A stretch of 64,000 bases of DNA. It comes from Hormiphora californensis. Its lineage: Eukaryota; Animalia; Ctenophora. A program made the position numbers and the translations under genes. The DNA is taken from NCBI GenBank assembly GCA_020137815.1, contig CM035351.1, forward strand, positions 1,550,001 to 1,614,000, written 5' to 3'. The notes beneath the pieces are model-generated. The model was given only the letters and a program-made list of their open reading frames with translations. It made no database searches and had not been told where the DNA came from. Numbering within the stretch: the stretch's first letter is position 1; each line of letters starts with the position of its first letter. Below, piece after piece: positions 6,608-64,000 of the stretch.

Positions 6608-6646
6608 TCAAACTTTTCAACACTACTTTAAACAAATTAATTTGAG
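6608..6646 (+). other. Ctenophore spliced-leader exon sequence (TCAAACTTTTCAACACTACTTTAAACAAATTAATTTGAG), not followed by GT
   Basis: Matches my recollection of Pleurobrachia-type SL; sits exactly at the 5' end of a TSD-flanked insertion. Confidence 0.8.
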
Positions 6647-6689
6647 CAACATGGCGATGTAACGGCCCCAAAGGGCAGAACGTAAGATA

Positions 6690-7652: not shown

Positions 7653-7923
7653 TAGGAATCTTCAATGAACTTTAATATCTATCGGTAACCCGTATTTGCC
7701 CACAAAAAAGGGGCTTATTTATACAATTAAATTGTGTAAATTATATAGATTTAATAATAATAATAATAAAAATGCTGGCATTAGCTGAGCCCTGAGTCTC
7801 TCAGTGAGGTGCCAGAAAGGACAAATGACACCGCGATATGTATTTCAATCAATCAATCAAAATGCTTAATCGGTGGGGCGTGGGCACCAGAGCACTCATA
7901 ACAGTGGTGACGATTTTACCATG

Positions 7924-8496: not shown

Positions 8497-8721
8497 GTAC
8501 ACCCTTATCTTTCTAAGTGTGACAGAAACAGTGGAGTGAGGAGTTCTAAGTGCAGCGGTGTTATAGCACTGGTTGTACAACTTATAACACTGCCCAGTGT
8601 TATAAGTGAAAACTTATAACACTGGGGGGTGTTATAAGTGAAAACTTATAACACTGGGCAGTGTTATAAGTTGTACAAGCAGTGATACCTAAAGATTTAC
8701 AGTATGTCCCAAAATTTTACA
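7924..8721. mobile_element. Non-autonomous insertion with ATG at both junctions, GC hairpins (CGAGACCGAAGGTCGAG) and an internal inverted copy of its joined ends; possibly Crypton/tyrosine-recombinase type
   Basis: Absent from paralogous site at 40121 (TTTTACC-ATG-CAACTTT); 8185-8217 is the reverse complement of right end + left end. Confidence 0.55.
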
Positions 8722-8743
8722 ATGCAACTTTTATCTGTTAGCC

Positions 8744-10898: not shown

Positions 10899-11623
10899 GT
10901 ATGTGGTGGGAGCTAGTTCTAAACCTGTCGTTAGGTAGGTGGTGGGAGCTGGTTCTAAACCTGTCGTTAGGTATGTGGTGGGAGCTGGTTCTAAACCTGT
11001 CGTTAGGTAGGTGGTGGGAGCTGGTTCTAAACCTGTCGTTAGGTATGTGTTGGGAGCTAGTTCTAAACCTGTCGTTAGGTAGGTGGTGGGAGCTGGTTCT
11101 AAACCTGTCGTTAGGTAGGTGGTGGGAGCTGGTTCTAAACCTGTCGTTAGGTAGGTGGTGGGAGCTGGTTCTAAACCTGTCGTTAGGTATGTGGTGGGAG
11201 CTGGTTCTAAACCTGTCGTTAGGTAGGTGGTGGGAGCTGGTTCTAAACCTGTCGTTAGGTAGGTGGTGGGAGCTAGTTCTAAACCTGTCGTTAGGTATGT
11301 GGTGGGAGCTGGTTCTAAACCTGTCGTTAGGTAGGTGGTGGGAGCTGGTTCTAAACCTGTCGTTAGGTAGGTGGTGGGAGCTGGTTCTAAACCTGTCGTT
11401 AGGTATGTGGTGGGAGCTGGTTCTAAACCTGTCGTTAGGTATGTGGTGGGAGCTGGTTCTAAACCTGTCGTTAGGTAGGTGGTGGGAGCTGGTTCTAAAC
11501 CTGTCGTTAGGTAGGTGGTGGGAGCTGGTTCTAAACCTGTCGTTAGGTATGTGGTGGGAGCTGGTTCTAAACCTGTCGTTAGGTATGTGGTGGGAGCTGG
11601 TTCTAAACCTGTCGTTAGGTATG
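10873..11623 (+). repeat. 36-bp tandem array (~21 units) = last 25 nt of ADPGK exon 8 + donor + 11 nt intron
   Basis: Unit GAGCT(G/A)GTTCTAAACCTGTCGTTAG|GTA(T/G)GTGGTGG. Confidence 0.95.
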
Positions 11624-11953
11624 GTGTAGTATCGGACGGAGGGCGCGAGATTTGGCAATCTCTGCTGCGCTGCAGCGCCGAGCACTGCAGCGCCGAGCGC
11701 TCCGTTCTGCTATTCCATCCTTTTTCCCAGGATCACGGTTTTAGATTCGGTCTTAGATTCAGTGAGTTTAGCAACAGTTCGGAAAAGGCAATCTAAAAAG
11801 AGTTACGTGTCCATTTATTTCTACATTTCATTCGGCCACGGAACCAAAGTCTTTTTATTCAGCAAAGGAGACGGCGAGGGAAAGAACCATTGGTATTCCC
11901 TCTTCGTCTCAGTTTCGGCTTTACTCTATCTGGTGGCTTCGGTCAAAGGTAGA

Positions 11954-19499: not shown

Positions 19500-21130
19500 C
19501 CGAAGTGGTGGTCCAGGAGAGGAGCCACGGAGAGAGGGAGGGGTTGACCCCAGGCGAGGAACACCGAAAGAGAGCTGGTGTTGGTTGATGTGGGGGTGGA
19601 CCCAGGGAGGAACACCGAAGAGAGCTGGTGGGGTTGAGGGAGGGGTGGAACCAGGAGAGGGAGCACCGGAGGAGAGGGAGGGGTGACCCAGGAGAGGAAC
19701 ACCGAAGAGAGCGGTGTGGTGAGGGAGGGTGACCAAAGCGAGAGGAGCACCGGGAGAGAGCGCTGCTGTGGGAGGGAGGGGGACACAGGAGAGGAGCACC
19801 GGACAGAGAGAAGGTTGTGAGAGGGAAGAGGGGTTGACCCAGGAAAGGAGCACCCCCGGAGAGAGCAGGTGTGGAGATGTGGAGAGGGAGGGGTGACCCA
19901 GGAAAGGAGCACCGGAGAGGAGGTGTGACCCAGGAGAGGAGCCACCGGAGAGAGCTGGTTTGTGGAGGGGAGGGGGGGACACCAGAAAGGAGCCACCGGA
20001 GAGGGAGGGGTGACCCAGGGAGAGGAGCACCCGGGAGAGCAGTGGGGAGAGGGAGGGGGAAAAAGAGAGGAGAAAAGGGAGAGGGAGGGGTGACAAGGAG
20101 AGAGCAAAAGAGAGCGGAAGAGCAGGTTGTGGAGAGGGAGGGGTTGAACCAGGAGAGGAGGCACCGGAGAGAGCTGGGGTGGTGAGGGGGGGTGGCCAAG
20201 GACAGCGAGCAACCGAGAGAGCAGGTGTGGAGAGGAGGGGGGACCTCAGGAAGAGGAACCACCGGAGAGAGCTGGTGTGGAGAGGGAGGGGGGACCCAGG
20301 AGAGGAAACACCGGAGGAGGAAGCAGGTGTGGAGAGGGAGGGGTGACCAGGAGAGGAGCCCCGGGAGAGAAGCTGGCGGTGGTTGAGGGTGGGGGGGGTG
20401 AAAAAGGAGAGGAGCACCGGAGAGAGAGAGCAGGAGGAGAGGCAGGTGTGGAGAGGGAGTGGTGACCCAGGAGAGGGCACCGGAAGAGGGATGGGGTGAC
20501 CCAGGAGGGAGCCCGGAGGAGAGCAGGTGTGGAGAGGGAGGGGTGACAGGAGAGGAGAACCGGAGAGAGCTGGTGCTCATGGTGAGGGTGGGGGTGACCC
20601 AGGACAGGCGCACCGCGAGAGAGCAGGTGTGGTGAGGTGGGGGTGACCCAGGAGAGAAACACCGGAGAGAGCAGGTGTGGAGAGGGATGGGTGACCCCCC
20701 AGGAGAGGAGAACCGGAGAGAGCAGGTGTGGTGAGGGAGGGGTGACCCAGGAGAGGAGCACCGGGAGGGAGGGGTGACCCAGGACAGGAGCCACAGAAGA
20801 GTCAGGTGGAGAGGAGGGGTGACCCAGGCGAGGAACACCGGAGAGAGTGGTGTGGAGAGGAGGGGTGACCAGGAGAGGAAACACCGGAGAGCAGGTGTGG
20901 AGAGGGAGGGGGGACCCCCAGGAGAGGAGCACCGGAGGAGAGCTGGTGTGTGGTGTGGTGAGGGAGGGGTGACCCAGGAGAGGAGAACCGGAGAGAGCTG
21001 GTGGTGGTGAGGGGGGGTGACCCAGGAGAGAGCACCGGAGAGGGAGGGTGTTTGACCCAGGAGAGGAGCCCGGAGAGGAGCTGGGTGTGGTGAGGGAGGG
21101 GTGACCAAAGGAGAGGGGCACCGAAATTGA
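19500..21130. repeat. Degenerate purine-rich minisatellite (GGGGTGACCCAGGAGAGGAGCACCGGAGAGAG...)
   Basis: Recurrent ~45-bp motif with many indels. Confidence 0.8.
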
Positions 21131-22389
21131 AAAGAGCAGGTTATGGCTGAGACATGTGCTTAATGCGAGATATGTTTAGGGTGGCTACCGTGTGAGAGCA
21201 AAAGAAACGATGCAGCAATAGTGTCTGATTGGGAGGAGATGGCAGTGAACATGGGGGGTTGGTTGAGATAAGGGATAGAATAGTGTGTGCGTAAGTACTA
21301 GTACTAGTAGGGTAGGGGTGGGGGGTGGCGGGTAGTGGTACACACTCTTGGATTCTAGATTTATGATACATAATAATGTTCATATGCTGTTCACGTCACA
21401 TTTCCAAAACAACCAGCCAGGTGATACTAGTCCGTAATCGTAATTTAGCATGGTATTATAATATGTAGAATCGCAAAAATTTACATCGCCTCCCGGCGCA
21501 AGTCGTGTATCCCCCACAACGCCGCGCCCAGTCAGAGCAGGGCAGGCAAGATAGCGGCCCGTCCAGGGTTAAGTTTTTTCGAGGGCGTGTAGCTATTTGG
21601 GTTGGTTGTTAAAAACATCTGAATCGCAGAGTTCCCAAACCCATATGTGGCGAAACCGGCAGAGCGACACACATACGGAGCGATGAGGGCAGCGGATCGA
21701 ACCCCGTCATGCCAAGGTTTTTGCCCAGCAGAGAGGAAGTAGGGGCCAATTAGTCGAGAAAGAGAGGGGGTACTAGGCGCTATTGTAGTTTTTGATTAGG
21801 TTACTTTGGGTCAGTGCCAAAGTTGCATCCCAGAGCGAAAAAGGCAGTTACCCAATCCCACAAACCAGCAAAAATCACACAAAACCGACTGGTAGTATAG
21901 AGCAGAGGTTCCTGTTCTTACGGGGATTGTTTTTTTTTTTCGTGGGGTGTTGGTGTCATTTCATACTCGACCGTCATCGTAATCAGGTTGATTGGAAATA
22001 ACGCGGACGGGGAGGGGAGGGGTGAGGGGAGGAGGGGAGGAGGGAGGGGGTGGTTATATGGTAGGACAGGAGAAAGCAGGAGCAGAGAAAGAGAAATTGA
22101 AAAACATCATGAGCGCAAAAACCTACCAGACGGGGGTGGGTTGCTAGGGGGGATGGTTTAGGAGCGGGGGCGGGAGTGGGCGCCACCCTAGCAGCCCGGG
22201 GGGGTCCCTCTTTGCAGTAATGTATAGTAAACAAGTTGTAATAGGTACTTGTCACAGGGTTTTGTCGTTGTGTGCAGGCTGCAGGTATTATCCGGAAGTA
22301 GTATGTACTGGATCAAAGAGCTGGGAAGATGAGCAGAAACCGTAACAACGAGAGAGAGTATATAGGATATATGTGATTCTATTCTTAAT

Positions 22390-22519
22390 TCTAATCCATT
22401 AGAAATGGTGAATCACATATCCTAATCCATAAGGAAGGGTGAATCACATATCCTAATCCATTAGAAAGGGTGAATCACATATCCTAAGACCTAATCCATT
22501 AGAACGGGTGAATCACATA
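22390..22519. repeat. ~30-bp tandem repeat (CTAATCCATTAGAAAGGGTGAATCACATATC), ~4 copies
   Basis: Direct reading. Confidence 0.8.
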
Positions 22520-24793
22520 GGGTAAGCTGGGGTGAACGGTCCGCGGGGGTTTGGTATAAAGTGGCACGATGGGGGCAAAAGTGGCCCTAGTTATTACATG
22601 TGGTCACGTGACTTTTTTTCTCCGCGGAGACCTGATCGTTTGTTCCGAATTTTCGCTTTAAAACTGCTGTCATTTCTGTTTGGGGGTTGGCGATTTAATT
22701 TTGCAAAAAACTGCCAGTTAGCTTATAATTCTCTAAAACGTGGTATAAAATTTTGAAGGAAGAAAGGAAATTGGCCATTTTTGTGTGTCTTAATTGTTCA
22801 ATTTTGTGAAATCGGGCAAATTGGCCCACTCTCCGGGGCGGGCAAAAGTGGGTAAGGTCTGGGGCAAAGTGGCCACCTTAGATCCAATGAAGGGCGCCTG
22901 CAATACCACGTGACATTGGAATGCACAAAAAAATGTAGTCAGACGATAAAATTAGGGGACAAGTGGGCCCATGTTCCGGTGCAGAACATTGGGGCCACTT
23001 GCCCCTAGTTGATCGTTCATCTAAAAAACACCAAGGCACTGATTTTATAATGAAATCGAGGCAATGTGATATTGGATTGGGCCACCACTTTGCCCCGGTG
23101 CAACAAACAAGGAAAAAACTTCCCAATACTAAAAACAACCAAGCCAACACCAAGAAAAAAACAAAAAAGGGTAAGAGAGTGAACGCCCAACAAAAACAAT
23201 ACAAGAAAGCAAAGAAAAGCCAAACACTCAACAACCAAACAAATCTGGCCCAACACAGGAACAAAACACCTATCCCCACGAAGAGTAACTCCTCCACCCA
23301 CAACAACCAACCTCACGAAGAATGAAAATGAGTCGCACAAATGCCCCCCCCCTTCAACCCCTCAGACCATCAATTCACCCTCATCACTCTCTACTACCCC
23401 AACCTATACTTATAAAGCAAACCCCCCCCACCTATCCGCTCCCTCCCACCTGCACCCACCAACCAGACCCCCACAGCACGTCATCAAAACAAAAAACCCA
23501 CTAGCAAATAAGGAAAAAGAGAAGAGAGACGATCACAACCCACCAAAGCCACAACTAACCAAACCCGCACCACACCCCCACACCACTCCCACTCCCGCCC
23601 AAAAACATACTACGCACCCCACTATCTCCACAGTCATTATACTCGCAGCGTTCTCCCCCAAGAGAAGAAGACACACACAAAAGCCCCCCCCCAACCCAGC
23701 CCCACAATACCCCCAAACGACCCAACCGCATCAAGCACACTCCCCGACCACCAACCCAACCCAAACCCCTCAAAACCTTGACCACTACCCCTCCTAGAAC
23801 CCAACCTCCTCCCCCTACCCCGCCATGACACAACAACCCGAAGCGCAAAAGACCCACCCCACCGCACCCCCATAACAACACCCCCAATAGACAACCGCCA
23901 CCCCCCCGACCCCCTCCCCCTCCTCTGCCCCTCTACTGTCACACTCTCTCTTCTCACCCCCTTCTATAATATTCCCCTCCCCCACTACCCACAACCGACG
24001 AGCACGTCACCAAAACCCCGCCCACACCCCACGCCCTCCTCACTACCCAACAACAATAAACGCACCTCCAAACCAGACACCACCCCCCCACCGCATCTCG
24101 CAGCACAACACCACCCCCCTCCCCCCTCCAACTATGCCCAACCCGACATCATCCTCAACTACATCCCCCCTACCTAACCAACCAAACATACTACCCACAC
24201 CACTCCCACTAGCCACCCCACAGACCAATGCTAACCACCACTTGACCTCACCAAACCCCAGCCGCAACCATCCCCCACCAACACACGTCTATAATTCAAA
24301 CTTCCCCGTCCCCATAAAAACCTCACACCCCTTTCACCCCCATAAACCACCACTCCATACGCTCCCTCCCCACCCCCCCCCCCCCCCGTAACCCTGAGCC
24401 GTACCCAGCCCCCCCAACCCCACCAACCTCCCCCCCACACCACGCCCCCCCGAAGTAACACTATGCCAACGAAGAAACAAACCCCCATAAAACCCCCCTC
24501 TCTAAGAGACGCGCTCCCCAAGCACATATGAAAGAGAGAAAAGCAGTCAGACAGAGATAGAATCGCAAGTGCAGGACGAGAAGAATGAGGAAGCAGAAGA
24601 ACATACAGCTACGGCCCAGCGACGAGAGGAGCTGCATGAGAACGAAGAATAGGAGGAGACGAGAAGTAGGAGAAGAAGGAAGAATAGAAGACTAGCAAGA
24701 GAGATGGAGCTTGAGAGAGGAGACGGAGGAGAGAGCAGAGAAGAGAGAGAGAGAGCGAGAGAGAGAGGGAAAGAGAGAGGAAGAGAGAAGAGA

Positions 24794-25594: not shown

Positions 25595-26818
25595 TAGTTA
25601 GGATACCCGATAATAGGTAGAGTAACAAAGATTAAACTATGGTAGACACCCAGGCTTGATTTAAAATGGGAAAGTGTTGCGTGTTGACGTGCCTGAGGTC
25701 TGAGGGTCCAGCCAGCAATACGTCTCGCCTCTGGTATTACACGAGATATCTGAGCTGACCATGAACCGTCTGAGGAGAGAAGAACGCAAAGATCTCGAAC
25801 TGCAGTACGGGAAGGGATAATAGCTCTAACGTCTGAGAGATGAAATGAATAATTCTCCGCACGGTGACGCGGTGACTCCCAAACTAACTAATGTGTCAAT
25901 ACACTAATACATTCCAATGAAGCTCTTGTAAATTTCAAATCATTTTACCCATTTGCTGATGACACGTGATCCCCTCAAAAATGCTGGTTGAATTTCGTCT
26001 TTAGACAGTTATAAGACACTCTAAACATTGAGCTAGGACAAAAACCCAGGTGATGCAATGTGATCCCAGCAACTTTGCATTTGTGAATTTTTCAAAACGT
26101 GAACTCCGGTCGGATTTCATGAACACGTAATTTTTACTTTACGATGATATATCTGACGATTGGTAAGACTTGGAAAGTCAATCTTGCAACCAAAATGTTC
26201 GCCAGACAATTCTCTAGAACACTGATTTTTGTTAGAACCATTTTGACCAATTTTTCGATGAGTTTTGGTTAGTTTAGTGGATCCCGGTCATAACCCAAAA
26301 TCGCAGGTGACGCAAAGACAGTGGGACACCCTGTACAGTTGGATCTCCGATGTAAACTGTGTGTATGTGGACAGTGAGTACTGTACAGTGTACCTACTCT
26401 TCACGGTCTATTGACTAGAAAAAGTGTCCCCGTGAGGATTGAGATCGACAGATAGTCACCCTTTCCTAACAATTATCAGCCTGTCAACTGTACTGACAGA
26501 GTAACACGATGAAATGTGGATCCGTAGTCCGTACAATGTATTTTTCCAAGTGGCTCCATGATTCTACTTTGTGGCCCACCCTGTACAAATCTGAACAGCT
26601 GTGTCTGTCCAGACAGACAGGTAAACCCCCTGACCCGGTCGCGATTCAAGATTTTGTAGACTCCTTCGCGCGAGTTGTGAGCCGCGCGTTTGACAACGCC
26701 ACGACACGCGCGGGTGGTTTCCCGCGTAATTTCTCTCGCGCGAAGGAGTCTAGAAAACTGGGCGAGTAGAGGGGGTCTACCTGTTGGTGTGAAGTGTGTG
26801 TATATCATGTATTATATA

Positions 26819-29800
26819 CAGGGTGTGAACTGCATGTCGTGTTTGCTAGTCGCGAGCGCGCTTGCGAGACAAGCAAACACGTCAAGGGCATTAACAAGCA
26901 TGCTGCTCAGTCATTTTAGATTTAATACACAATGTAAGGATACCATGTAAATAGGTGAGACTCTTGCCGTCACCCTCGTTCAAGTCCCGTGAAAAACGGA
27001 GCAGTACACGCAAACTGATGCCCAATGCCATTTCCTTCGCGTGACCCCGATCAGCAGTTTGAGACACAACTCTAGGGGGCCATATCTCAGGAACCAGACA
27101 AAGATAGGAAAAATCGCCGTCTATGAGGCGTAGGTACAGTTTTTAATCTAGTTTACCACTGTACCGGCCGTTTCACTCTCCGACCTAAAACAAAAATCGC
27201 AACCCCACAAAACTTCAAAATAATAATAATAATAATAATAATAACTATGTTTATATTCCGCCCATATCCGACAGGGACAGAGCAGCGAAACTGCTGCTGT
27301 CACTGAAGGATGATCTGGAACGGTTAATATACTGGTAAGACCTCGCCAATTATCCCTAATAGAACAAAAAAAATAATAAAGAAAAATTACACCGGCTCAC
27401 ATTACTATCAAAATAATGAAATTCGCATCTCGCATGTCGTGTTGCATGTCGTGTCATGTTATTGACGCGCTCGCGTTCAACTCCACACAGCAGCTGCAGA
27501 ACGTGGCGGGAAACATCGAGGAGTAGAGAGGGGTCGGTGCCGAATCAAATATTTCTTGATCTTGATCTACCATCTCTCAGCTTCCTACCCCTCATCTACT
27601 CCATCTTCAGCTACCCTACCCCTCATCTACTCCATCTTTCAGTACCCTACCCTCATCTACTCCATCTTTTAGCTACCCTACCCCATCTAGTCATCTCTCA
27701 GCTACCCTACTCCTAATCACTCAATCTTCAGCTTCCTTAGGGAAGCATAGAGATGGAAACGATTTGGGATAGGGATCCTATCATAATCGTTTCCATCTCT
27801 ATGCTTCCTAGCCCTCATTCAACTCCATCTTTCAGCTACCCTACCCCTAATCTAGTCCATCTCTCCGCTACCCTACTCTCATCTACTCCATCTCTCAGCT
27901 ACCCTACCTCCCATTTACTCCATCTCTCAGCTTCCCTACCTCCCATTGACTCCATCTCTCAGCACCACCTGCCATTTACTCCATATCTCAGCTTCCCTAC
28001 CTGCCAATTACTCCATCTCTCAGATACCCTACCTCCCATTTACTCATCTCTCAGCTTACCTACCCCTCCCATTCTACTCCATCTCTCAGCTTCCCTACCT
28101 CCCATTCACTCCATCTCTCAGCTTCCCTACCTCCCATTTACTCCATCTCTCAGCTTCCCTACCTCCCATTTACTCCATCGCTTAGCTTCCCTACCTCCCA
28201 TTTACTCCATCTCTCAGCTCCTACCTCCATTTACTCCATCTCTCAGCTACAACCTCCCATTTACTCCATTTCTCAGCTTCCCTACCTCTCATTTACTCCA
28301 TCTCTCAGCTACCCTACCTCCCATTTACTCCATCGCCAGCTTCCCTACCTCCCATTTACTCCATCTCTAGCTACCTTACCTTCTATTTACTCCATCTCTC
28401 AGCTTCCCTACCTCCCATTTACTTCCATCTCTCAGCTTCCCTACCTCCCATTTACTCCATCCCCAGCTTACCTACCTCCCATTTACTCCATCTCTCAGCT
28501 TACCTACCTCCCATTTACTCCATCCTTGCCTCCCATTTACTCCATCTCTCAGCTACCTACCTCCCATTCCCATCTCTCAACTATCCTACCTCCATTTACT
28601 CATCTCTCAGCTCCCACCTCCATTATCCATCTCTCAGCTTCCCTACCTCCCATTCACTCATCGCTTACCTTCCCTACCTCCCATTTACTCCATCTCTCAG
28701 CTCCTACCTCCATTTACTCCATCTCTTACCTTCCCTACCTCCCATTTACTCCATCTCCCGCTTACCTAAATACTATCTCTCAGCTTCCCTACCTCCCATT
28801 ACTCATCCCTCAGCTACCCTACCTCCCATTTGATCCATCTCTCAGCTTCCCTACCTCCCATTTACTCCATCTCTCATTTATCCTAACATTCCTACCCCTG
28901 AGAGATGGAGTAAATGGGAGGTAGGGAAGCTGAGAGATGAAGTAAATGGGAGGTAGGAAAGCTGAGAGATGGAGTAAATGGGAGGTAGGAAAGCTGAGAG
29001 ATGGAGTAAATGGGTGGTAGGGTAGCTGAGAGATGGAGTAAATGGGAGGCAAGGATGGAGTAAATGGGAGGTAGGGAAGCTGAGGGATGGAGTAAATGGG
29101 AGGTAGGGAAGCTGAGAGATGGAGTAAATGGGAGGTAGGGTAGCTGAGAGATGGAGTGAATGGGAGGTAGGGTAGCTGAGAGATGGAGTAAATGGGAGGG
29201 AGGGAAGTGAGAGATGGAGTGAATGGGAGGTAGGAGGAAGCTGAGAGATGGAGTAAATGGGAGGTAGGTAAGCTGAGAGATGGAGTAAATGGGAGGTAGG
29301 AAGCTGAGAGATGGAGTAAATGGGAGTAGGGTAGCTGAGAGATGGAGTAGATGAGGAGTAGGGTAGCGGAGAGATGGACTAGATTAGGGGTAGGGGAGCT
29401 GAAAGATGGAGTTGATGTGATGGCTAGGGAAGCATAGAGATGGAAACGATTAGGATAGGGATTCCCTACCCAAATCGTTTCCATCTCTATGCTTCCCTAA
29501 TAGGGAAGCGGGAGATTGAGTAGATGAGGAGTAGGGTAGCTGAGAGATGGACTAGATAAGGGGTAGGGTAGCTGAAAGATGGAGTAGATGAGGGGTAGGG
29601 TAGCTGAAAGATGAGTAGATGAGGGTGAGGGGTAGGGTAGCTGAGAGATCGAGTTGATGAGGGGTAGGATAGCTGAGAGATGAGTAGATCAAGATCAAGA
29701 AATATTTGATTCGGCACCGACCCTCTCTCTACTCCTCGATGTTTCCCGCCACGTTCTGCAGCTGCGTGTGAGAGTTGAACGCGAGCGCGTCAATAACATG

Positions 29801-30236
29801 ACACCGACATGCAACACGACATGCGAATGCGAATTTCATTATTTTGAAGTTTTGTGGGGTTGCGATTTTTGTTTTAGGTCGGAGAGTGAAACGGCCGGTA
29901 CAGTGGTAAACTAGAATAAAAACTGTACGCCTCATTAGACGGCGATTTTTCCTACTTGTCTGGTTCCTGAGATATGGCCCCCTAAAGAGTTGGTGTCTCA
30001 AACGCTGAATCGGGGTCACGCGAGAGGAAATGGGCATCAGTTTGCGTGTACTGCTCCGTTTTTCACGGGACTTGAACGAGGGTGACGGCAAGAGTCTCAC
30101 CTATTAAATGGTATCCTTACATTGTGTATTAAATCTAAAATGACTGAGCAGCATGCTTGTTAATGAACCTTGACGTGTTTGCTTGTCTCGCAAGCGCGCT
30201 CGCGACTAGCAAACACGACATGCAGTTCACACCCTG
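26819..30236. mobile_element. Foldback-type element: long inverted arms ending CAGGGTG..CACCCTG with inverted ~32-bp tandem arrays meeting near 28895
   Basis: 26819-27900 is the reverse complement of ~29350-30236; repeat TTCCCTACCTCCCATTTACTCCATCTCTCAGC switches strand at centre. Confidence 0.75.
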
Positions 30237-30613
30237 ATATAGTATGTGCGTGAGAGTCGTGGGAACTCGTATGCAATGTACATTGTACATCCCGCCCAAA
30301 ATAAGCTTCGATTTTAACATTTAGACTCCTAATACCATCTCAGCTGACAGTTAGAGCTTAGATCGGCATCTGTGGGAGGGGGAGCCTGTACCCTATGATT
30401 TTAAATTGAAAACACAGAAGCTGGAGGGGACCACTAACGGTTATAAAAATATCGAACAGAACCTATATCTTCAAAATTCATCATCTCAAATATTATCCTC
30501 TTTCTCTCTGTCAGGCCAATGCTCTGACCACAGTTCTCGCGGGCTCCGTTGAGAGAAACGAGAATGGGTCAGGCCAATGCTCTGACAGCTTTCTCTGGTA
30601 TTCTCTCATTATA

Positions 30614-36269: not shown

Positions 36270-36886
36270 CCTGCCGTTTTACCCACCGTAAAGTCTGCAG
36301 AAAATTCAAACTGTACGGATCTCACTCACGCCATGGGTGTAAGTTGGGTGCAAAGTGCTCAAAACTGCATCCAAAATTATGTGAGGGCTCACAGCGGAGA
36401 ATGAAGGAGCGGCAGTGCCTAAACCCTGATTGCCCACATCTCCACCTCAAGGGTACACGAAGGAAAGTGGAAAACCCTGAAAGGAGAGAACGTCAGGAAG
36501 TTGTTAGGACAACACAGCAACCTAACACTCACGCCACTGACCACAGAGAGAGAGTGCAGGATGAACAACTCCCTCTTAGCGGCTCACCATTGCGACCAGT
36601 TTCGCAGCAAAACCCTGGACACTTACAATCGGGTTTTCTGAGCATTGTTTTGAAGGAGGTCAGGAATGCCAGAGAAGAATCACTGAGGCAAGCGGACAGA
36701 ATGGAAGAAATTCTCTCCCAGCTTGGTCCAACCCACAACGAGTCGATGCTGCACAACCAGCTGGCCCACCACTTACAAGCACACCCGCCAGTACAGTACA
36801 CTCTACCCACAGGAATATCAATGACTCAAGGAGTACATCGGCAACTACCGACCCAAATACTGCCCTCTCAAAGATTATCCTACTAA
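36270..36886 (+). CDS. LINE ORF1 C-terminal part with CCCH-type zinc fingers
   Basis: CRKFKLYG...GCKLGAKCSKLHPKLC...CLNPDCPHLH. Confidence 0.7.
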
Positions 36887-39876
36887 ACGGGAGAAGTATT
36901 TCACCGGCCGCTGGGGGGAACACTCGGTGGAAACTCCCCTTCATCGAGGCTGTTTTGCTCAACAACCCAAACTCACCGCCGACAGTTGCCCTTGCAATAA
37001 CTGAGTCATGGTTGAAAAACTACATTGCAGACGCCCAAATCAAAATGCAGGGATACAGCACCTTCCGTTCTGACCGTCCTGATCGGAAAGGAGGAGGTTG
37101 TGTGTTATACATTCGTGAAGACATCCCAATCAGCTATGCATACTCATTCAGTGACCGGGAATGCAGTCTGGTATTGGCTTTTAGTAAAGCTAAAAACATG
37201 TTGTTTTCATGTATCTACCGTCCCCCCGAATCATCTGACCAGTCCTTCATCACAGTTATGAACGATCTCCAAGATAAAATTGATCTCCTGTCCAATGAAA
37301 GGAGCCCTGAAATGTTTATCATGGGCGATCTAAACTTGCCGTTGTTCAACTGGAAAGAAGAATCCCTACCGTCAGCTGCTGCTAACATAGCAGCTTATCA
37401 ACGAACGGTGAACTTCATCGAGGAAAACTTCCTGACTCAGGTCGTTGACAAACCAACCAGGGGCAATAATATTCTGGATGTTATAATGACCAACTCACCA
37501 CAATACGTATCAACTGTGACAACTGAAGAGACAAAGATCTCTGACCACAGAATAGTTGACTGTACCCTGGTGATAAACCCCCTTATGAAGACAGCAGATA
37601 CCATCAAAAAGTGGGACCACATGAGTTTTCGAGGATTGGACATTCCAAAAGCCAATTTTGAAGAAATGAATGTGGACATTGCTTCTGTTGACTGGGACAA
37701 ACTGCAGACATTATGTGAAGAGTCTGGAGACCCTGTTGGTGACAAATTCAAAGAACTTTTCATTCTAACTGTTCTGCAAATCACCATCAAGCACACCCCT
37801 CAGAAGATTCAGCGGAGAAAATTCAGCCCCCTGGAACCACTGAGAAGGAGAAGGCGGAAGTTAAAAGCAAGACTTGGAGCAATTTCCTCTGTCAACGTTA
37901 ACATCTCAAAAACTGAAGAACTCCAAGACGAACTCACAGCACTTGAGGACAAGATACAGAACGCTGTAGATGAATCAATCGAAAAGAAGGAACACAGCGC
38001 CATTAAGACGATCAAGGCGAACCCACGATATTTCTTCTCCTACGCTAAACGACTTTCAAAAGTTAAATCTAACATCGCCCCCCTCAAACGTGATGACGGA
38101 ACACTCACCACGGACAATACTGAAAAAGCGGAACTCCTGCAAAAGCAGTACTGCCGTGCCTTCAGTGATCCAGACGGGGGAGACTTGCTGAAAAGTCTCT
38201 CTTGGGTAGAGGATAGCAATACGATTTTAGAGGATTTCATTTTTACATCAGAGGACATCAAAGGAGCTCTCTCTGAGCTTGATCCTGCTTCTGCCGGACC
38301 AGATGGTGACATCCCTGCTAAAATTCTCAGTGCTTGTAAAACCACCCTCGCTGTACCACTCTTTCTTCTTTGGGAGCGGTCTTTCGAGGAAGGAATAACA
38401 CCCCCTAACCTGAAAAAACAATACATCACACCAATCTTCAAGCGTGGTGATAAAACTCTGGCTGTTAACTACCGCCCTGTTTCGCTGACTTCTAACTTGC
38501 TAAAAACGTTTGAGCGAGTTGTACGAAATAAGTTAGTGGAACACCTGGAAAGTAACAATCTCCTACCAGACAGCCAACATGGATTTAGGAAGCAACGGAG
38601 CTGTCTCACACAACTACTCGATCACATGGATGGAATTTTTCGAGAGTTAAACAGTGGAAATGAAGTCGATGTTATCTATTTGGACTATTCCAAAGCCTTC
38701 GACCGTGTCAACCACACCATTCTCATTGCCAAGCTGGAAAAGCTAGGTATTAGAGGGAAAGTACTAAAGTGGATAAAAGACTTCCTTACTGGCCGGTATC
38801 AAACAGTAACCGTCGACGGAGAAAAATCGAACTTTGAGCTTGTCAAAAGTGGGGTACCTCAAGGAACCGTACTTGGACCAATCCTCTTTATCATCTACGT
38901 AGCTGATCTCCAGAGCCAAGTGATCCACAGCAAAATCAGAACCTTTGCGGATGACACCAAGCTCCAGAAGAGCGTCGACTCGGAAGAATCAGGAGCAGAA
39001 ATGCAAGAGGATCTTCAGCGTGTGGTGGAGTGGTCTGCAGCCAATTGTATGACACTCCATGAGGACAAGTTCGAGGTCATCCACTACACTCTGAACAGAA
39101 CGTCCCTTCTCAGAGAACTCCCTTTCACTCATGAGTTAAGCTTATATGTGACTCCAGGTGATAACGAAATACAGCCAAAGGATACAGTGAAAGACCTTGG
39201 CATCACCCTCTCAAACAATGGCTCCTGGACAGACCATGTAATGAGGATTTCATCAGAAGCACGACGGATGGCCGCCTGGGCACTGAGAGCTTTTAAGGAT
39301 AGGTCAGTAACCACTATGCTGACACTCTACAAGTCACTAATAAGGTGCAAAGTAGAGTACTGCTCACCTCTGTGGTCGCCCTACAAGATTGGTGACATTC
39401 AGGCTCTGGAAAGCATCCAGAGACAGTTTACACGACGGATCGAAGACATGGCACAACTTGACTATTGGGAGCGGCTGAAAAAGCTAAGACTTATGTCATT
39501 ACAACGTCGGCGGGAGCGATATTCGATAATACAAATGTGGAAAATCTATAATGGTGCAGCACCTAATAGCACGAATACCCGGTTTTACCATCATCAACGG
39601 CTCGGCGTCCGAGCCGAAGTACCTACTCTTTACAGTGGAGCACAGAAGTCATTCTCAACAAAATACTTCCATTCATTTGCTGTAAGGGCCGCTCGGCTAT
39701 GGAACACATTGCCGAAAGAGGTTAACACAGCAGCGACCTTAGATACGTTCAAGATCCTGCTGGGCCGTTGGCTGGACCACTTCCCTGACAATCCACCTGT
39801 GAAGGGTTATTCTACCCGGAACAACAATTCTATCATGGACTGGGTTTTGGAGGTTCGAGCTAAAGGGGGATGCTGA
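36565..39876 (+). CDS. LINE ORF2: APE endonuclease + reverse transcriptase
   Basis: LLNGRSI, AITESWL, GGGC, IYRPP, GDLN, SDH; YLDYSKAFD, GVPQG, FADD; frame open from 36565. Confidence 0.92.
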
Positions 39877-40142
39877 AAAGACTGACACCGTTTACGATTC
39901 TGTAATGAAGTTTATTTATCAAGTTTATCAAGTTTATCAAGAATCTCTTTCACTCTTTACCGCGCTGCTAGCATTAGCTGAGCCCTGAGTCTCTCAGTGA
40001 CTAGTGAGATGTCAGAAAGGACAAATGACACCGTGATATGTATTTCAATCAATCAATTAACATGCTTAATCGGTGGGGCGTGGGCACCAGAGCACTCATA
40101 ACAGTGGTGACGATTTTACCATGCAACTTTTATCTGTTAGCC

Positions 40143-44719
<4,577 letters not shown>

Positions 44720-45096: not shown

Positions 45097-48000
45097 ATGG
45101 CAGGTGCTGGATTTAGAGCACTGTGTGATGAATATGTCAGGAAACTGGGAAGTTCCACTACCAGGACCCTGGCGGATGTGAACTCTCTGATGACGGGGAG
45201 CAAAGGAACAGATCAGGAGAAGAAGACATGTCTTGATGTTGCTCTGAGAAAGGCTGTCTTCAAGAAGGTACAAAAACATACACTAACGAAGTTTAGTTTT
45301 TCTCTGTCCGACTGGACAAGGTGAGACTGGTTTTGTTGTATAATGACATCAGAACAGTATCAGAACAATCATTTATACAACAATGTATATGTAACTGCCC
45401 CCACCCTGTAACTACCCCCCCCCCCCCGGCACCAGGTTGAGGGAAGTGACGAGGAGGTAAAGAGTTATATTGACCTGTCCTTCCAATGCACCAGATCTGG
45501 CTGTGCCTCAGCAACTACACCCTTCTTTGTGCTAGCTGATGTATTCGACTGTCTAACTCTAGAGAGATGTGCCAATGTGTTCTGGTGAGTTACCTATATA
45601 CTTCACAACAATCCGGGGATGGGGTAGAACTTGGTTAAAACATTGTGCTGTATGTCACCAGCATCCGGCATCCCTTATCAAACTAAGCACTTGAAGATTC
45701 AAAAGTAGAAAAAGTGTAAATTATACCAGTCTACACAGAAGACTATAATATCACAAATCACACAAATAGGTTCGTCCTAGTTTACAGAGACCCTTGGCTA
45801 TCCATCACCCGATCTCCAGAGTTCCTTCTCTCCATGCTCACAGTACCCTTACATGCTCTTGTGTATCCACATTAGGACGAGTAAAGGTCAACCTCTCGTA
45901 AATTGGTTCTTCGTAGCTGTCCAATGGAGGAAGTTCCACCCTCTCAATGGGAATGACAGGGGGTGATCTGGATCTGTATCGCACCAGATAGTTAATAACA
46001 GAGAGTAGGGCGAGCACAACCAACACGGCCGATAGTATACCAAACACGTAGAATCCCATTCTTTGGGATGTTTCATCATCATCATCATTTTCCACCTCAA
46101 TTTGTCCCGGAGGGGGTTCTTCTTCAGGTTCTTCCAAGATGATGACTTGGGTTGTTTCCTTTCCAGTTACAGTGTTAGTTGCTGTTATCATAACTTGTTT
46201 GGTGGTGTTCAGATCCACAGTGATAGTCGTGTTTTGTTGGTAACCAGCTTCCACTGTTCCGTTCTTTATCTCAGTGCCGTCTGCAAACCAGGATACTTTA
46301 ACTGGGTCCAGGGATGTTATCGCAGCTGTCACGTTGTTCTCAGTCTGTTTTAGTCGGTCAAGTCTTGGTGTGTCACAGCTGTGTTCACATATTGCTAGGT
46401 AGGAACACCCTGCACTAACTGTTAGGGACCAGTCGCTCTTTAGAAACAATTCTCGATCTGTGTTGGAAACGTCTTTAGGAAAGGGTAACATTTCAGGCTT
46501 GGTATCACCTCGGTATACTATACCAAATGTGTTTCCGACTCCAAAACATTCTAATTCCAATGACACCTGATCCTGTCACATTGATCAAATGGCGGCTCAT
46601 ATGAGACCCATGGAAGAGACGCGGTTTCAAATTGGAATACACAAGTTGAGCTAAACGTTGGTTCAAGTTAAACTGAAGAGATTGCAATGAGTTTGTAATG
46701 TTTTTGAGGGTGACGGTACACCATCCACCCACAGGTATCAGTACAGTTCCATTGGTTAGGGATCCTGTCCGTAGTAGTTGTCCTGGTGATGTCACTTTAC
46801 TACACCCATCAAGGTCACACAACCCTGTAGCTAAGCTGGTGTGTACCTGGTAAGAAAAGACAAGATACGAAGAACACAGGAACAGCAACATGAGCACTGG
46901 GAGAGAAAGGGGGAGAGAGAGAGTGTGTGTGAGAGAGAGAGCACTTCCCTGTTACTCAGCTGTCGATACCATGATATATTGTTTTACAAGTTTTTCTTTG
47001 AGTAGAGAAAAACTAAAGTTTAGAAAAGACAAAATATAAAATCAAGATCAATCACATGCGTCACATTATATCACCAAAAAAAACTCAAAAAGCATAACCT
47101 ACTCAAAATGTTTTTCGCAGTCTCTAAAAGTCAAAAGATGGCCAAGGAACTCTCGTATAGGGGTTCCTCAGAGTCCAGGTGGACAGGTGTAAACTCTTTG
47201 GGTGGCCGGTATGTCCGGAACCCAGGTCTCACCACCGTTCTGTCCAGCTGGTCGTACACCCCATCAGGTTTCTGTCGAGGTGAGGTTCGGACCACGAGAT
47301 CAGCGTACACGGGATCCTCCTCATCAGGGTTGGGGTGGGAGGTAGTGGGGATGCTCTCTACTGGTGGGGGCGAGGGAGGGTGAGTCACTCGTGGGATCTT
47401 CCTGATGGCTTTGTGGTAGAGGGTGACTAACAGGATACCACCTACCACCAGGATCACCAGAATACAGGATCCGATAATGTACCATACACGACTTGACTGG
47501 TCCTCTATAACGCTATCATCATCTGGGTCCTCATCTGGATCGTCCTTCGTGGTCAGGTCGATTAATTGGGTTGTTTCCTTTCCAGTTACAGTGTTAGTTA
47601 CTGTTATCATAACTTGTTGTGTGGTATTCAGATCCACAGTGATAGTCGTGTTTTGTTGGTAACCAGGTTCCACTGTTCCGTTCTTTATCTCAGTGCCGTC
47701 TGCAAACCAGGATACCTTAACTGGGTCCAGGGATGATATCACAGCTGTGACGTTGTTCCCAGTCTTCTGTAGAGGTTCAAGTCCTGGTGTGTCACAGGAA
47801 CATATCGCTAGATAGGAACACCCTGCAATTTCAGAGAGGGACCATTCGCTCTCTAGAAACGTTTCTCTATCAGCTTTGGAAATAATATTTGGAAATGTTA
47901 GTTTTTTAGGAATGGTGTCTTTTTCATAGACAAAACCAAACAATTTTCCACTCCAAACCATTCTAATTCCAGGCAAATTTAATCCTGTCACATTGGTAGT

Positions 48001-51000
48001 ATCAAGATGGTTCTTCAAATTCACTGTATTAGAGTCATGCACCAGTTGAGCTAAACTTCTATTTAAGTTTAACTGGAGTAGTACGTTGGATTCTGTCACA
48101 TTCTCTAGCGAGATGCTGCAGTTATCGCCCACAGGTATCAGCACAGTTCCATTGGTGAGATGTAGTAGTTGTCCAGGTGTGTCCACATGACTGCATTCAT
48201 CGATATCACACACTTTCGTAGCATTCAGATCCGTGTACGTGTATACACCTTTTAGAAGAATAAAATAAAACCAAAACAGCAGCAACATGATGAGTGTATC
48301 ATGAGGCCAATGTATTATGTTCCTGTTGTTTTCATCATCTCAATGTCAAGTTTTGTATTCCCCTATTATATATTTGGTTCGTGATTCGTCACGTGCTCCA
48401 TCATCATCATCATTATATAATCATGATGATAATACGCTTCTTATAAAATGGGTTTTACATTTGTGTGGGTGTTTTGTTAGAAACGATCTCAATAAGAATA
48501 AATCACGATCGTCCTCCCAAACAATAGTCTCGAGCTGAAAGGGAGATCTGACCCCCTTTATTCTAGCTACAGTCGGACCCCGATTTACCGGGCCCCGATT
48601 TACTGGAACCCCGATTTACCGGGAGGATAAACTTCCCCCGATATAAGAAATTGACGATATTTTGCCCCGATATACCGGGCACCCCGATTTACCGGGCAAA
48701 CCCCTTTCCCCCGAGCATCCCGGTAAATCGGGGTCCGACTAATGTATAATAGGGGGAACGTGAGAGATTGTGATCTAACCCCCTCTATTTCAGCTATGTA
48801 GAGGAGAAAAGTGGGCAGTTCGTCAAAGAACCGACTGGAAACAGGAATATGATCCTACGATTATGTAATGACCTAATAAGAAGATGCAGCAAATCAATAA
48901 ACAACCTCTTCTGTGGTCGCATCCAAATAATCCTTGCTAAGATATTCCCTATTACTGAGAGGTGAGATTTTGAAGAATGTGTTCCTTATGTCGCGGCTGT
49001 TGGTTACGAAATAAACCATCGTCTTTCGAGCACTGGCAAGGGCCTTGTCGCAAGGGAGGGGTAACCTCGTTACCAAGCTATATTTATCAATATCTCTCCA
49101 GGTCTGGTTTGAATCTGCAGTCCCAGTTCAACCTAGAGAATGTAACTGAGTACAGTAACACACATGATGAAGATGTTACCATGGAAACTGAAACTAAAGA
49201 GGTAAAGTTACCTGATCAGTTACATAATTAGCTACACTATCAATTATATAATCAGTTACATAGTTAGTTGTACTATCAGTTACATAGTTAGTTGCACTAT
49301 CAGTTACGTTGTTTATCTTTTCCAGATTTCGTTTATGTTTTACAAGACGCTCTGGTCAATGCAGGACTACTTCAGAAATCCCAACCAAATATCAAACGAT
49401 GCAAACTGGAAGAAAATGGAAGGTATCTTTATAGACCTCTATACTGCAGGAATTTGTTGTGCATTCTACAGTTTCCAGTATGGGTAATTAACATAAATAT
49501 TATTCCTTCAGATACCGTAAATGAGATCTGTCGGATCTTTGAAAATTACAAGCATGAGGGGAGTGAGCAAGTTTCGAAGGATGAGGCATACTTTGCTAAG
49601 TTCCTCACCAGTGAGAGACTCCTTACTCTCCAGATCATGGACTCCAACTTCCGTCGTCACATCCTGGTCCAGATCCTCACCCTGTTTCACTACCTTACTG
49701 GAGATGTCAAGTTCAGACCTAACAAACTGGTACGCGCGAGTTGTTCCATACAGCCCTCTCCGCGCCATTCCCTCTCATACGCGCGGCTCAGTCTTCAATT
49801 GTTCAGTTGCAGAATGTGATGTGAAGATGTGAACACGGACCACAGTTCTAAAAGATCAAGCATGGCTCTTTCTAGACTCTATCTCTAAATTTCTAACGAT
49901 GATGACTAGTTTCTTCGGTGAAACTTCACCATAGAAGCATTGGAGAGATCTCAAAAACCCTCCATCCCCCAGATATTGTCTGAGCCCCGGAAGTTTTGGA
50001 TACGAGACACCACCAACAACATCTACTCCATCTTGTCCGAAACACCCCCTGATGGCCCACAATTTGTTAAACATATCAAATCTGTTCTGAGGTACGAGGA
50101 GAAATGGAGCAAATGGAAGAATGAGGGATGTCCCTCCCTCTCTAAACCTGCAGAAAAGGTTTGTTTAGTAGTATGGGTATATTCCATTATTCTCTTTTAT
50201 ACAGGGGTATGTGATGCTTACAGAGGCATGTAATAACTCCTGTCAGCAATAATACAGAGATATTTAGTTTTGTATACCAAATCGTTCCCTATTTATACCA
50301 CCTGTGCGCTGGATCGTCTCTTTAAGAATTTCTCGACACACACCTGGTGAAACTAACACTACTGTCCAAATCATGCAACACCCATACGTTAAAGCATGCA
50401 TCTCATGACTCATGTCCTATTCAAATCTTAAGATTAAAGTAATATCTCCTGTTCAGACAAAACAGCAACAAAAGGGTGTACGAAGAACGGTTCGAGCGAT
50501 GGATTTGAATTCCGAGAAGTTTGATCTTGGTAACCCGACCCTGAATGAACTGTGGAACATCTGCCCGGATAACCTGGCGGCCTGCCAAGATTCTAACAGG
50601 AACTTCACCCCTGATGTAGGTGTTTGCGGTAGAAATGGTCTGATAGAAATCAATTTCCGGTAGTCACACCGCCAAATTATAATTGTTTTTTTTGGCCATG
50701 ATCTCTACCAATTCCGTCTCCCACACTTTCTTTCGCTATAATTCAAGATATCTCTCCAATATCACCGGCCATCCCTCGCATCTTTCCCTTCATGAATCTC
50801 TAACCAGTAACCATCCCTCCCCTCTCTCCCTTACTTTATTACCGACCATCCCTTCTTTCCCAGACGTACAAGTTCTTTGAGGAATGTATCGAGCAGTTAG
50901 AGCCGGACTCTGGAGTTGAGAAGCAGTACTACCTGACCAATGACACGGCATTTGTTTGGCGCAGTCTGCGTCTCCTGGCACAACAATCTCACCCTTACTT

Positions 51001-56981: not shown

Positions 56982-58307
56982 CTTTAAACAAACAAACAAA
57001 TTAATTTGAGTTTCAGCAACATGGCGATGTAACGGCCCCAAAGGGCAGAACGTAAGATAATGGCAGACGAACAACGAGAATTGGACTTTGCTGTAAGACG
57101 GATTCTGACGCTGGCCAAAAGTGGAGAGAGCTCTGTCGCTGGCAATGTCTTAAAAAAGTGCAGGAGCAGTCCAGATTTCAACGATGCTGAAATACCGTCA
57201 TCAGTTAAAATCAACTCTGTACACACGAAATATGAGCTAAAGCAACTGATTGAAGAAATGAGCTTTGCAACGTTTATTGTTCTAAAACACTTTGAGCGTC
57301 ATATCTTTGCCGAGAAATCCCCTGAGATGGTACTCAAAGAGGAGCGAGATGAACTCAAAGAGGAGCGAGATGAACTGTTGAGAAAATCTCTCGAGTTGCA
57401 GGAGCAGGAGGAGAAGTTGAAAGTGGAGTGTGATGATCTTTTGAGAAGAACTGTCAAGTTACAAGAGCAGGTTATTGAGCTTCAGGGCGAGCAACTGAAT
57501 CGAGTTACCGAGACGGTACAGAAAGATTTGCGTACTTTCTCTGCAGTCGTCACACAGAATTGTAAGACTGCGTTTGCATCGAAAAAGATCCAGAAAGCCG
57601 TGGAAAAGGTCACGCACAAGCCAGTTGATACCGGCCCAGACAGATCGAAAAATCTGATGGTGTTTGGTCTACCGGAATGTGAGGATGAAACTGAATCTGT
57701 GTTAAAGGGTGAAGTGGAAAATGTTTTTGCTGAGCTAGGCGAGAAACCGACCATAGAAGCTAGAAGGGTGGGTTTGAAACGGGGAGGAAGGGAGAGACCA
57801 GTGATTGTGAAGCTACAGTCTACATATCCCTTGCAAGATATACACCGCAGTACGATTCTAACTGTTTTAGCTGCTTTGCCTTCTGGAGAAGGCTCAGCAG
57901 CATTTCCCTACTCTGAGAGTAGGGAAATGCTTGTATTGTTCATACTATTATTTTTTTAATAAGGGCGCGGGGGAGGTGCAACAGCACAAGGAAATGCTGC
58001 TGAGCCTTCTCCAGAAGGCAAAGCAGCTAAAACAGTTAGAATCGTACTGCGGTGTATATCTTGCAAGGGATATGTCCTTCGCAGAGAGAAGTGAGAGGAG
58101 AGAACTCCACCAAACGTTGAAGGAGTTGAGGGACTCGAATCCTGGAGGCCAATTCCGGGTACGGAGGGGGGTGATAGACTTTTCATAATGGGTATCTTCA
58201 ATGAACTTTAATATCTATCGGTAACCCGTATTTGCCCACAAAAAAGGGGCTTATTTATACAATCAAATTGTGTAAATTATATAGATTTAATAATAATATA
58301 AAAAAAA
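56982..58307 (+). mobile_element. SL-capped ORF1-only retroelement, copy 2 (ORF disrupted at ~57819-57990)
   Basis: High identity to 6608-7772; starts with CTTTAAAC(AAAC)2AAATTAATTTGAG then TTTCAG; A-rich tail. Confidence 0.85.
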
Positions 58308-62048: not shown

Positions 62049-62251
62049 TATTATGAACTTGTAGTTTTAATCAACTCATTCCCCTCCCTCACACTATATT
62101 GTACTTTTTGTAAACCTCGTCCCCATCCCCGACACCAATAACTAACTTCTTCACCTATTATAGCTAACTCCCTCCCCTAGCAAGGCGCCTCTATGAAACC
62201 AGCCCCCCACCACACCCCCTAACTCCCTCCCCTATATTGTATAGCGCCTCT

Positions 62252-64000
62252 ATGAACCCAGCCGGTAGACGGGATCCAGGGGAGAGACCACCCGATGGTA
62301 GAGGTATCCCAATGTCAGGACGCCTAACTGAGTTCCCCATTCCTACCACACATGTGGCGGGAAGTGTGCTCCCATCATCCATCATCCGGCCTGACTACCA
62401 GTAAGCCCCCTCTCTCTTTCTAAGTTCTCTAACATTTAACTCCACTTACAATATATTTAGGTGGCTGTTCACATCTCTCTCTTTCCAACACATATCTTTT
62501 TGTCCACACTCTAACCCCCTAACCCCATTCTCAGTAGTACAACAAGGGGGGTACATGGTGGAGGGGTACCCCAAGCCCAGGCAGGGGTGCAGCGAGGTGG
62601 TGCAGCGGGGGCAGCAGGAGCAGGGGCTGGCGGTGAGGGGCAGTATCAGAGATTACGTGTTGACGATGCTTTGTGGTACTTGGACCAGGTTAAAGCCCAG
62701 TTTGGGGATCAACCTCACGTGTACAATCAGTTCCTGGATATAATGAAGGAATTCAAGTCACAAAGGTAGATCTAACAAATCACAACAGTATGATATTTAG
62801 AAGATGTTTCCCTTGTCTTCCATTATGTATTCTACTGTAACAACACCCTGATCTCCCAATATAGTATCGATACACCTGGTGTTATTACCCGCGTAACACT
62901 CCCACCCTCTAGTATTCATACGCCTGGTGTTATTACCCGTGTAACACCCTCCCCTCACCTCTAGTATTGATACGCCTGGTGTTATAACCCGTGTAACACC
63001 CCCCTCACCCTCTAGTATTGATACGCCTGGTGTTATAACCCGTGTAACACCCTCACCCTCTAGTATTGATACGCCTGGTGTTATTACCCGTGTAACACCC
63101 TCACCCTCTAGTATTGATACGCCCGGTGTTATTACCCGTGTAACACCCTCACCCTCTAGTATTGATACGCCTGGTGTTATAACCCGTGTAACACCACCCT
63201 CACCCTCTAGTATTGATACGCCTGGTGTTATTACCCGTGTAACACCCTCCCCTCACCTCTAGTATTGATACGCCTGGTGTTATAACCCGTGTAACACCCT
63301 CCCCTCACCTCTAGTATTGATACGCCTGGTGTTATTACCCGTGTAACACCCTCCCCTCACCTCTAGTATTGATACGCCTGGTGTTATTACCCGTGTAACA
63401 CCCTCCCCTCACCTCTAGTATTGATACGCCTGGTGTTATAACCCGTGTAACACCCTCCCCTCACCTCTAGTATTGATACGCCTGGTGTTATTACCCGTGT
63501 AACACCACCCTCACCCTCTAGTATCGATACGCCGGGTGTTATTACCCGTGTAACACCCTCCCTCCCCTCACCTCTAGTATTGATACGCCTGGTGTTATTA
63601 CCCGTGTAACACCACCCTCACCCTCTAGTATTGATACGCCTGGTGTTATTACCCGTGTAACACCCCCACCCTCTAGTATTGATACGCCTGGTGTTATTAC
63701 CCGTGTAACTCACCCCCCCCCCCCACTCCCATCCTCTAGTATTGATACGCCTGGTGTTATTACCCGTGTAACACCCTCCTCTCACCTCTAGTATTGATAC
63801 GCCTGGTGTTATAACCCGTGTAACACCCTCCCCTCACCTCTAGTATTGATACGCCTGGTGTTATTACCCGTGTAACACCCTCCCCTCACCTCTAGTATCG
63901 ATACGCCTGGTGTTATTACCCGTGTAACACCCTCCCCTCACCTCTAGTATTGATACGCCTGGTGTTATTACCCGTGTAACACCCTCCCCTCACCTCTAGT
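62252..64000 (+). CDS. SIN3: SIN3 transcriptional corepressor, 5' part (exons 62252-62400, 62535-62765; continues beyond window)
   Basis: PAH1: [39 protein letters not shown](S)[10 protein letters not shown]. Confidence 0.92.
62863..64000 (+). repeat. ~48-63-bp tandem array (>=22 units) = polypyrimidine tract + AG acceptor + first ~33 nt of next SIN3 exon
   Basis: Unit CCCTCCCCTCACCTCTAG|TATTGATACGCCTGGTGTTATTACCCGTGTAACA encodes (S)[11 protein letters not shown]. Confidence 0.95.

Follow-up and report, generated by a model that had tools for sequence, protein, structure and literature searches.

SIN3 and its neighbours in the window

The window, by which the whole stretch of 64,000 nucleotides that was analysed is meant, ends within a gene that similarity identifies as a ctenophore SIN3 with its PAH1 domain. 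A 55-aa query taken from the PAH1 exon exhibited 98% identity over 78% to SIN3 of Mnemiopsis leidyi (P0002), which was second by E-value and had the highest identity among the 120 matches listed, and the same exon gave a Pfam PAH match (E 1e-4). The features of the locus are collected in Table 1. The upstream SIN3 exon is spanned from 62253 to 62399 by the X1 contig with 0 differing letters in 147. This contig originates from a seawater run whose RNA nature is guessed (share 0.06); it has 754 bases at a depth of 4.7, spans 62543-62765 and then joins unit sequence of the array across a GT..AG intron. In the PAH1 exon, 5 of its 223 bases depart from the window sequence, all of them silent third positions (codons read by eye). 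No run recorded as RNA was listed by the run search, and X2, another guessed RNA run, gave no contig, which counts neither for nor against. X1 represents another individual or a sister species, may lack the array and does not show splicing of the window allele, and its joint was placed on unit 1, the sole unit in the compared stretch, which says nothing on the unit used. At 62150-62245, in the SIN3 intron before the upstream exon, a partial duplicate of that exon's own acceptor and start was seen by eye at about 62150-62200, and it is possibly a two-copy mirage minisatellite (a tandem repeat of a gene's own splice junction).

Two arrays of the donor type are located in another gene, a stretch of which is present twice (8714-11623 and 40113-43228, about 96.5-96.6% identity), either as a segmental duplication or as an uncollapsed haplotype. 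In one of three fragments tested, this gene gave a weak Pfam match to ADP-dependent kinase (E 0.003, below the curated cut-off), and it might be an ADP-dependent glucokinase-like gene. Within the donor array of the first copy, at about 11627, the gene is interrupted by an LTR-retrotransposon-like sequence with gag/pol-like frames recognised by eye. Elsewhere in the window, a long inverted repeat (26813-30241, 419 bases at 94%) resembles a palindromic foldback element and encloses a 32-base minisatellite whose two tracts (27570-28876 and 28898-29689) run in opposite directions. Two 98% identical copies (6641-7772 and 57011-58307) are present of an element that by eye resembles LINE ORF1, and at about 36400-39870 there is a longer reverse-transcriptase-like frame. 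A degenerate 48-base purine-rich array (19534-21078) and a noisy C/A-rich stretch (23000-24700) look like low-accuracy consensus. On the minus strand, two related ORF-like segments stand in tandem at 46100-48290 and seem to lie nested within an intron of a gene on the other strand, which we take to be THOC1-like. Nested genes are described as common in ctenophores (PMC8527503).

Table 1. Features of the SIN3 locus, variants of the array units and donor-type arrays of the window
Feature	Position	Strand	Remarks
SIN3 exon upstream of PAH1	62245..62402	+	limits by eye; tblastn match of M. leidyi SIN3 residues 1-49 at 62252-62383
SIN3 exon with first part of PAH1	62536..62765	+	5' limit by eye; closes in phase 2 of a Ser codon
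Donor and unique intron part up to first acceptor (99 nt)	62766..62864	+	GT..AG joint in the X1 contig
Unit 1, edge copy	62865..62912	+	3 silent differences from array consensus; own diverged acceptor tract upstream
Units 2-22	62913..63999	+	30 exon-derived nt and 18-33 nt C-rich intron end with AG; acceptors presumably unused
Unit 23, first base	64000..64000	+	authentic exon (into VSMLFRGRP) expected beyond the window
Silent variant ATC	units 1, 14, 21		
Silent variant ACA	unit 1		
Silent variant CCC	unit 6		
Silent variant CCG	unit 14		
Silent variant CGC	unit 1		
Silent variant ATA	units 3, 4, 7, 9, 12, 19		
Replacement GAT>CAT	unit 2		
Donor-type mirage, first gene copy	10873-11626		36-nt unit, ~21 copies
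Donor-type mirage, second gene copy	42478-44462		36-nt unit (26 exon nt and donor), ~55 copies

The array and the end of the copied exon

The SIN3 array in the window is genuine. It consists of 22 complete units (62865-63999), a 23rd being opened at 64000 and cut by the window end, which bears out the at least 22 tandem copies of the SIN3 3' splice site and exon start reported in the earlier note; TRF agrees (period 52, 22.1 copies, 90% matches, score 1743), far above chance. Unit lengths range from 48 to 63 nt, with 52 nt in 11 units, 48 in five, 51 in four, and 56 and 63 in one each. After the AG, every unit carries the last base of a Ser codon, the codons for IDTPGVITR and two bases of a Val codon, 30 exon-derived nt in all, and the remainder is a C-rich intron end of 18-33 nt closing with AG. 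It is this head-to-tail repetition of units of minisatellite size, each straddling the intron-exon boundary of SIN3 itself, from the intron 3' end through AG to the exon start, that characterises an acceptor-type mirage. The boundary was assigned by the match of the 30 exon nt to RNA contig X1 and of the spacer to the intron end of P0130, a genomic record discussed below. Two further readings of the earlier note were upheld, namely that length differences are confined to the C-rich (pyrimidine) part and that the units continue PAH1 in the correct phase, their phase-2 Ser carrying on from the exon ending at 62765. The single AG of each visible unit is the acceptor itself, followed by TA, and unit lengths are divisible by three in 10 of 22 cases, without sign of selection for frame. 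Variation is discrete and recurring, with 7 exon haplotypes and 9 spacer types: 11 of the 22 units are identical across the 30 exon nt and six more share one variant. Three differences fall in unit 1 and the sole replacement in unit 2, giving a homogenised interior and a diverged edge, of which the 5' one is in view.

The 11-letter peptide that had been read from each unit as SIN3 code held for all letters except the final T, where Ser stands in the X1 contig and in ctenophore proteins; the copied piece of exon is therefore 30 nt long, and the first two bases of the Val codon are its last. The X1 contig contains these 30 nt and their peptide once, and departs from the unit after 30 bases into VSMLFRGRP. 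Its 30-nt haplotype is found in no unit: it lies 1 change from the consensus and 2 from unit 1, with which it has ACA in common. In all five genomic ORFs assigned to ctenophores, that is the query P0125 and four close ctenophore-like ORFs from genomic DNA among 11 matches (P0127-P0130), the exon is unbroken at R|V, so that an intron would normally not be expected at the supposed end of a micro-exon. The motif VSMLFRG is common to P0130 and the X1 contig. A scan of metagenome DNA returned four loci (L001-L004), fungal- or insect-looking and none of them a ctenophore SIN3 locus, and in 4/4 the exon is likewise unbroken at R|V. The continuation of the exon was sought in the window by tblastn of P0130 residues 30-96, with nothing but a chance match (E 0.45) on the other strand.

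P0130 is a close ctenophore-like record with a single copy of the junction and no array directly upstream of the exon, and it carries 16 codons of translated intron. Compared by minimal back-translation, that is from protein alone, its last 21 intron nt differ by 2 changes from the spacers preceding units 4, 8, 14 and 16 and by 6 from the flank of unit 1, the best of 5000 random window places giving 3 changes. Over 36 nt the unique flank fits best with 9 differences (random minimum 9, 1% point 13). The array spacer looks like the ancestral acceptor tract, and P0130 looks like a single-copy version of the junction.

The unique intron part holds a branch-point-like motif at 62848-62852 and, at 62837-62842, the same donor-like hexamer that is found at the end of the exon-derived part of unit 1 (62893-62898). 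The base before the flank hexamer completes a 3-base match with exon bases 28-30. Presence of the hexamer in the unique flank together with this match marks it as the seam of a duplication reaching from the intron tract into the exon, and the proposal of the earlier note that CGT|GTAACA serves as a micro-exon donor was abandoned on this ground. Donor positions -1 and +5 compensate for each other. The seam hexamer lacks G at both and would be a poor donor; G at -1 or +5 was found in 30 of 30 donors read by eye in the window's genes, a list chosen by appearance, biased to good-looking donors and with one of them RNA-verified, so that its support is weak.

In the 30 exon-derived nt, 7 distinct changes were counted, 6 silent and 1 replacement, just as the earlier note had listed them. 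Against an expectation of 27-31% silent changes this gives P 0.002-0.005, or 0.011-0.018 when conditioned on the mutated base. After removal of the two changes private to unit 1, 4 of 5 are silent; the simple null then gives P 0.02-0.04, and stricter nulls give 0.10-0.12. The near-purely synonymous variation claimed previously is hence present as a bias (6/7), weaker than claimed (P about 0.1 by the stricter nulls without the private changes of unit 1), and this suggestive bias rests largely on unit 1. It likely reflects copying from working alleles: units would be copied from, and recombine into, working exon alleles that differ silently in the animal, and replacements would be filtered out. 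Heterozygosity is reported to be high in one ctenophore, at about 2% SNP (PMC8527503). In the 36-nt donor array the exon part has a single common variant, which changes Gly to Ser. It was counted in 13 of 54 and 3 of 21 parsed units and is missing in the first unit; silent bias is therefore not general within the window, although one variant says little.

Which acceptor serves the gene

From each of the 22 visible acceptors a stop is read within 17-99 codons, which makes the last copy the likely working one; its acceptor lies at least 1234 bases from the donor at 62766. Since there is one AG per unit, a transcript that took one unit as a small exon and then entered a later one would contain the 28 nt twice and be thrown out of frame. 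In the visible anatomy, the sole productive route would lead from donor 62766 to the last acceptor. The gene likely uses the last copy, outside the window, as its exon and removes the 22 visible copies together with the intron. Taken as a whole, the locus can with good confidence be considered an acceptor-type mirage minisatellite of the SIN3 intron end and 30 exon nt, whose last copy works while the visible copies are removed. The view of the visible acceptors as decoys refreshed from the real exon, put forward in the earlier note, fits with the stop behind each of them and with the unbroken exon in other ctenophore records.

The first duplicate could have arisen by a slip or an unequal cross-over at the 3-base match between intron 62836-62838 and exon bases 28-30, perhaps between two alleles, and amplification would have followed by ordinary minisatellite turnover. 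The choice of site may be governed by exon definition, a full exon and a real donor presumably following the last acceptor only, and mis-spliced products would meet a premature stop. In experiments with duplicated acceptors, the proximal copy was used in one classic globin study and the opposite was obtained by another group, as cited in PMC1557585. Frame-preserving exon skipping is described in M. leidyi (PMC6142364), in passages which do not address the SIN3 case.

Unit 1 deserves separate attention. Its acceptor is close to the donor (99 nt) and has a branch-point-like motif, and its exon part bears silent changes only beside a tract diverged at about 6 of 21 nt, which is not what plain neutral decay predicts. 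Two accounts suit this pattern: unit 1 may derive from a second allele, or it may really be in use. Real use is the basis of an unlikely explanation, intron gain in progress, in which unit 1 would be a 28-nt exon, the seam hexamer its donor, the array the body of a new intron, and a new acceptor would lie just before the Val codon of the last copy; a model for such gain is given in Fig. 7 of PMC3087553. Unit 1 has the nearest acceptor and its 3/3 differences are silent, and the same hexamer acts as donor in a neighbouring gene at 60669 (by eye), however with a G at -1 that the seam hexamer lacks. No visible unit has AG at the required place and two changes would create one; moreover P0130, the closest record, has no intron there, and silent variants occur in internal units too. 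If true, intron gain would mean the mirage model caught in the act in an essential ctenophore gene, with intron-less alleles persisting in close animals.

It is quite improbable that the array allele is mis-spliced at its proximal acceptors and is weak or null, tolerated alongside a normal allele or located on a redundant haplotig. Such an allele would agree with the stops behind all visible acceptors, with the single-copy acceptor that P0130 shows for a close animal, and with the other gene present twice in the window at 96.6% identity, one copy of which is cut by an LTR-type element. Yet the upstream SIN3 exons are intact with only silent differences from X1, lancelet mirages are described as splicing normally (PMC3087553, PMC3902484), and a long array with mostly silent variants is a better fit to a persistent working allele.

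Multiplication of a single-copy junction by the assembler is very doubtful. Noisy-looking parts do exist in the window (about 19500-24700), P0130 has no array directly upstream of the exon, and a protein search with the translated array, covering proteins of 53-172 residues, yielded two weak matches among 4879 candidates (P0130, not an array, and P0138, E 8.5) and no array-bearing ORF, which is weak evidence. Against stutter stand the discrete recurring variants (7 exon haplotypes, 9 spacer types) and a second splice-site array that is carried, with about 21 units in one and 55 in the other, by two diverged gene copies. The occurrence of both mirage types within 64 kb argues for a general property of the genome rather than stutter; nevertheless the exact copy number of the SIN3 array may be off.

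Scarcely credible is the idea of interchangeable, redundant micro-exons, raised in the earlier note, in which any unit could enter the mRNA and all would be under purifying selection: 6/7 silent variants suit it, but it requires a separate downstream exon starting at Val, seen in no ctenophore record examined (5/5 unbroken), the hexamer is a seam, each additional 28-nt unit would shift the frame if the last exon is continuous, and every intron read by eye in the window is longer (about 55 nt or more) than the spacers of 20-35 nt.

Other candidates were considered as well. In-frame repeat expansion of SIN3 was ruled out by the stops behind 22/22 acceptors and by lengths without bias to multiples of three. 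Recursive splicing, or tandem-duplication intron gain from within units, was ruled out by the lack of AG|GT in the visible units. The seam hexamer was rejected as a natural micro-exon donor, and a unit as a whole exon with a working donor was not supported, the exon being unbroken at R|V in 5/5 ORFs.

Known mirages and what the array means

The closest system is that of lancelet BflGb6, where the 3' end of intron B12.2 and the 5' portion of exon 2 are repeated in tandem; RT-PCR suggests normal splicing, copy number differs by haplotype, and edge units escape homogenisation (PMC3087553). Further amphioxus mirages are reported in Adh3, BflGb9, troponin C and PGBD5 (PMC3087553, PMC3902484). The SIN3 array resembles them in the tandem repetition of the gene's own intron end and exon start, in the spare AG signals and in the diverged edge against a homogenised interior. 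The size of its unit falls in the range of amphioxus Adh3, 10-72 bp, and the amphioxus genome, like the window, has both acceptor and donor types. The differences are of number and host, at least 22 units in a ctenophore against 3-6 in BflGb6 of a lancelet. Normal splicing and haplotype copy-number variation are reported for BflGb6, whereas the SIN3 array is known here from the window sequence. The passages on amphioxus mirages in PMC3087553 and PMC3902484 make no mention of silent bias, of which the SIN3 array has a suggestive one.

In man, donor-spanning minisatellites are described in F7 (the 37-bp VNTR of IVS7), CBS intron 13, interferon-inducible 6-16, LMNB2 and PDGF (PMC1557585), and a VNTR in ABCA7 intron 18 (PMC5954066). 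As in mirages, an authentic splice site recurs in many copies, most of the additional sites being silent; the 36-bp donor array of the window (42478-44462) is of this type. In the human donor VNTRs the first donor wins by 5'-to-3' scanning, whereas SIN3 must use its last acceptor, an outcome not explained by scanning from the donor. Intron gain from tandem duplication (the Rogers model, with internal tandem repeats at exon-intron boundaries, PMC2812944) shares with the SIN3 array an intragenic tandem duplication with splice signals. It differs in that AG|GT proto-splice sites are missing from the visible SIN3 units; a seamless new intron could therefore not be cut out of them, and the existing one is lengthened.

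Searches of open-licence papers listed no ctenophore mirage case, and in some of them PMC3087553 was the sole paper listed on an acceptor array. The SIN3 array looks like an example of a repeat type already known from lancelets, now in a ctenophore, and no new system is implied by it. If the locus is read correctly, mirage minisatellites extend to ctenophores, and a natural test of splice-site choice is provided, in which an animal with short introns skips at least 22 near-identical proximal acceptors for the last one, pointing to exon definition. The silent variants are barcodes that would name the unit used in cDNA.
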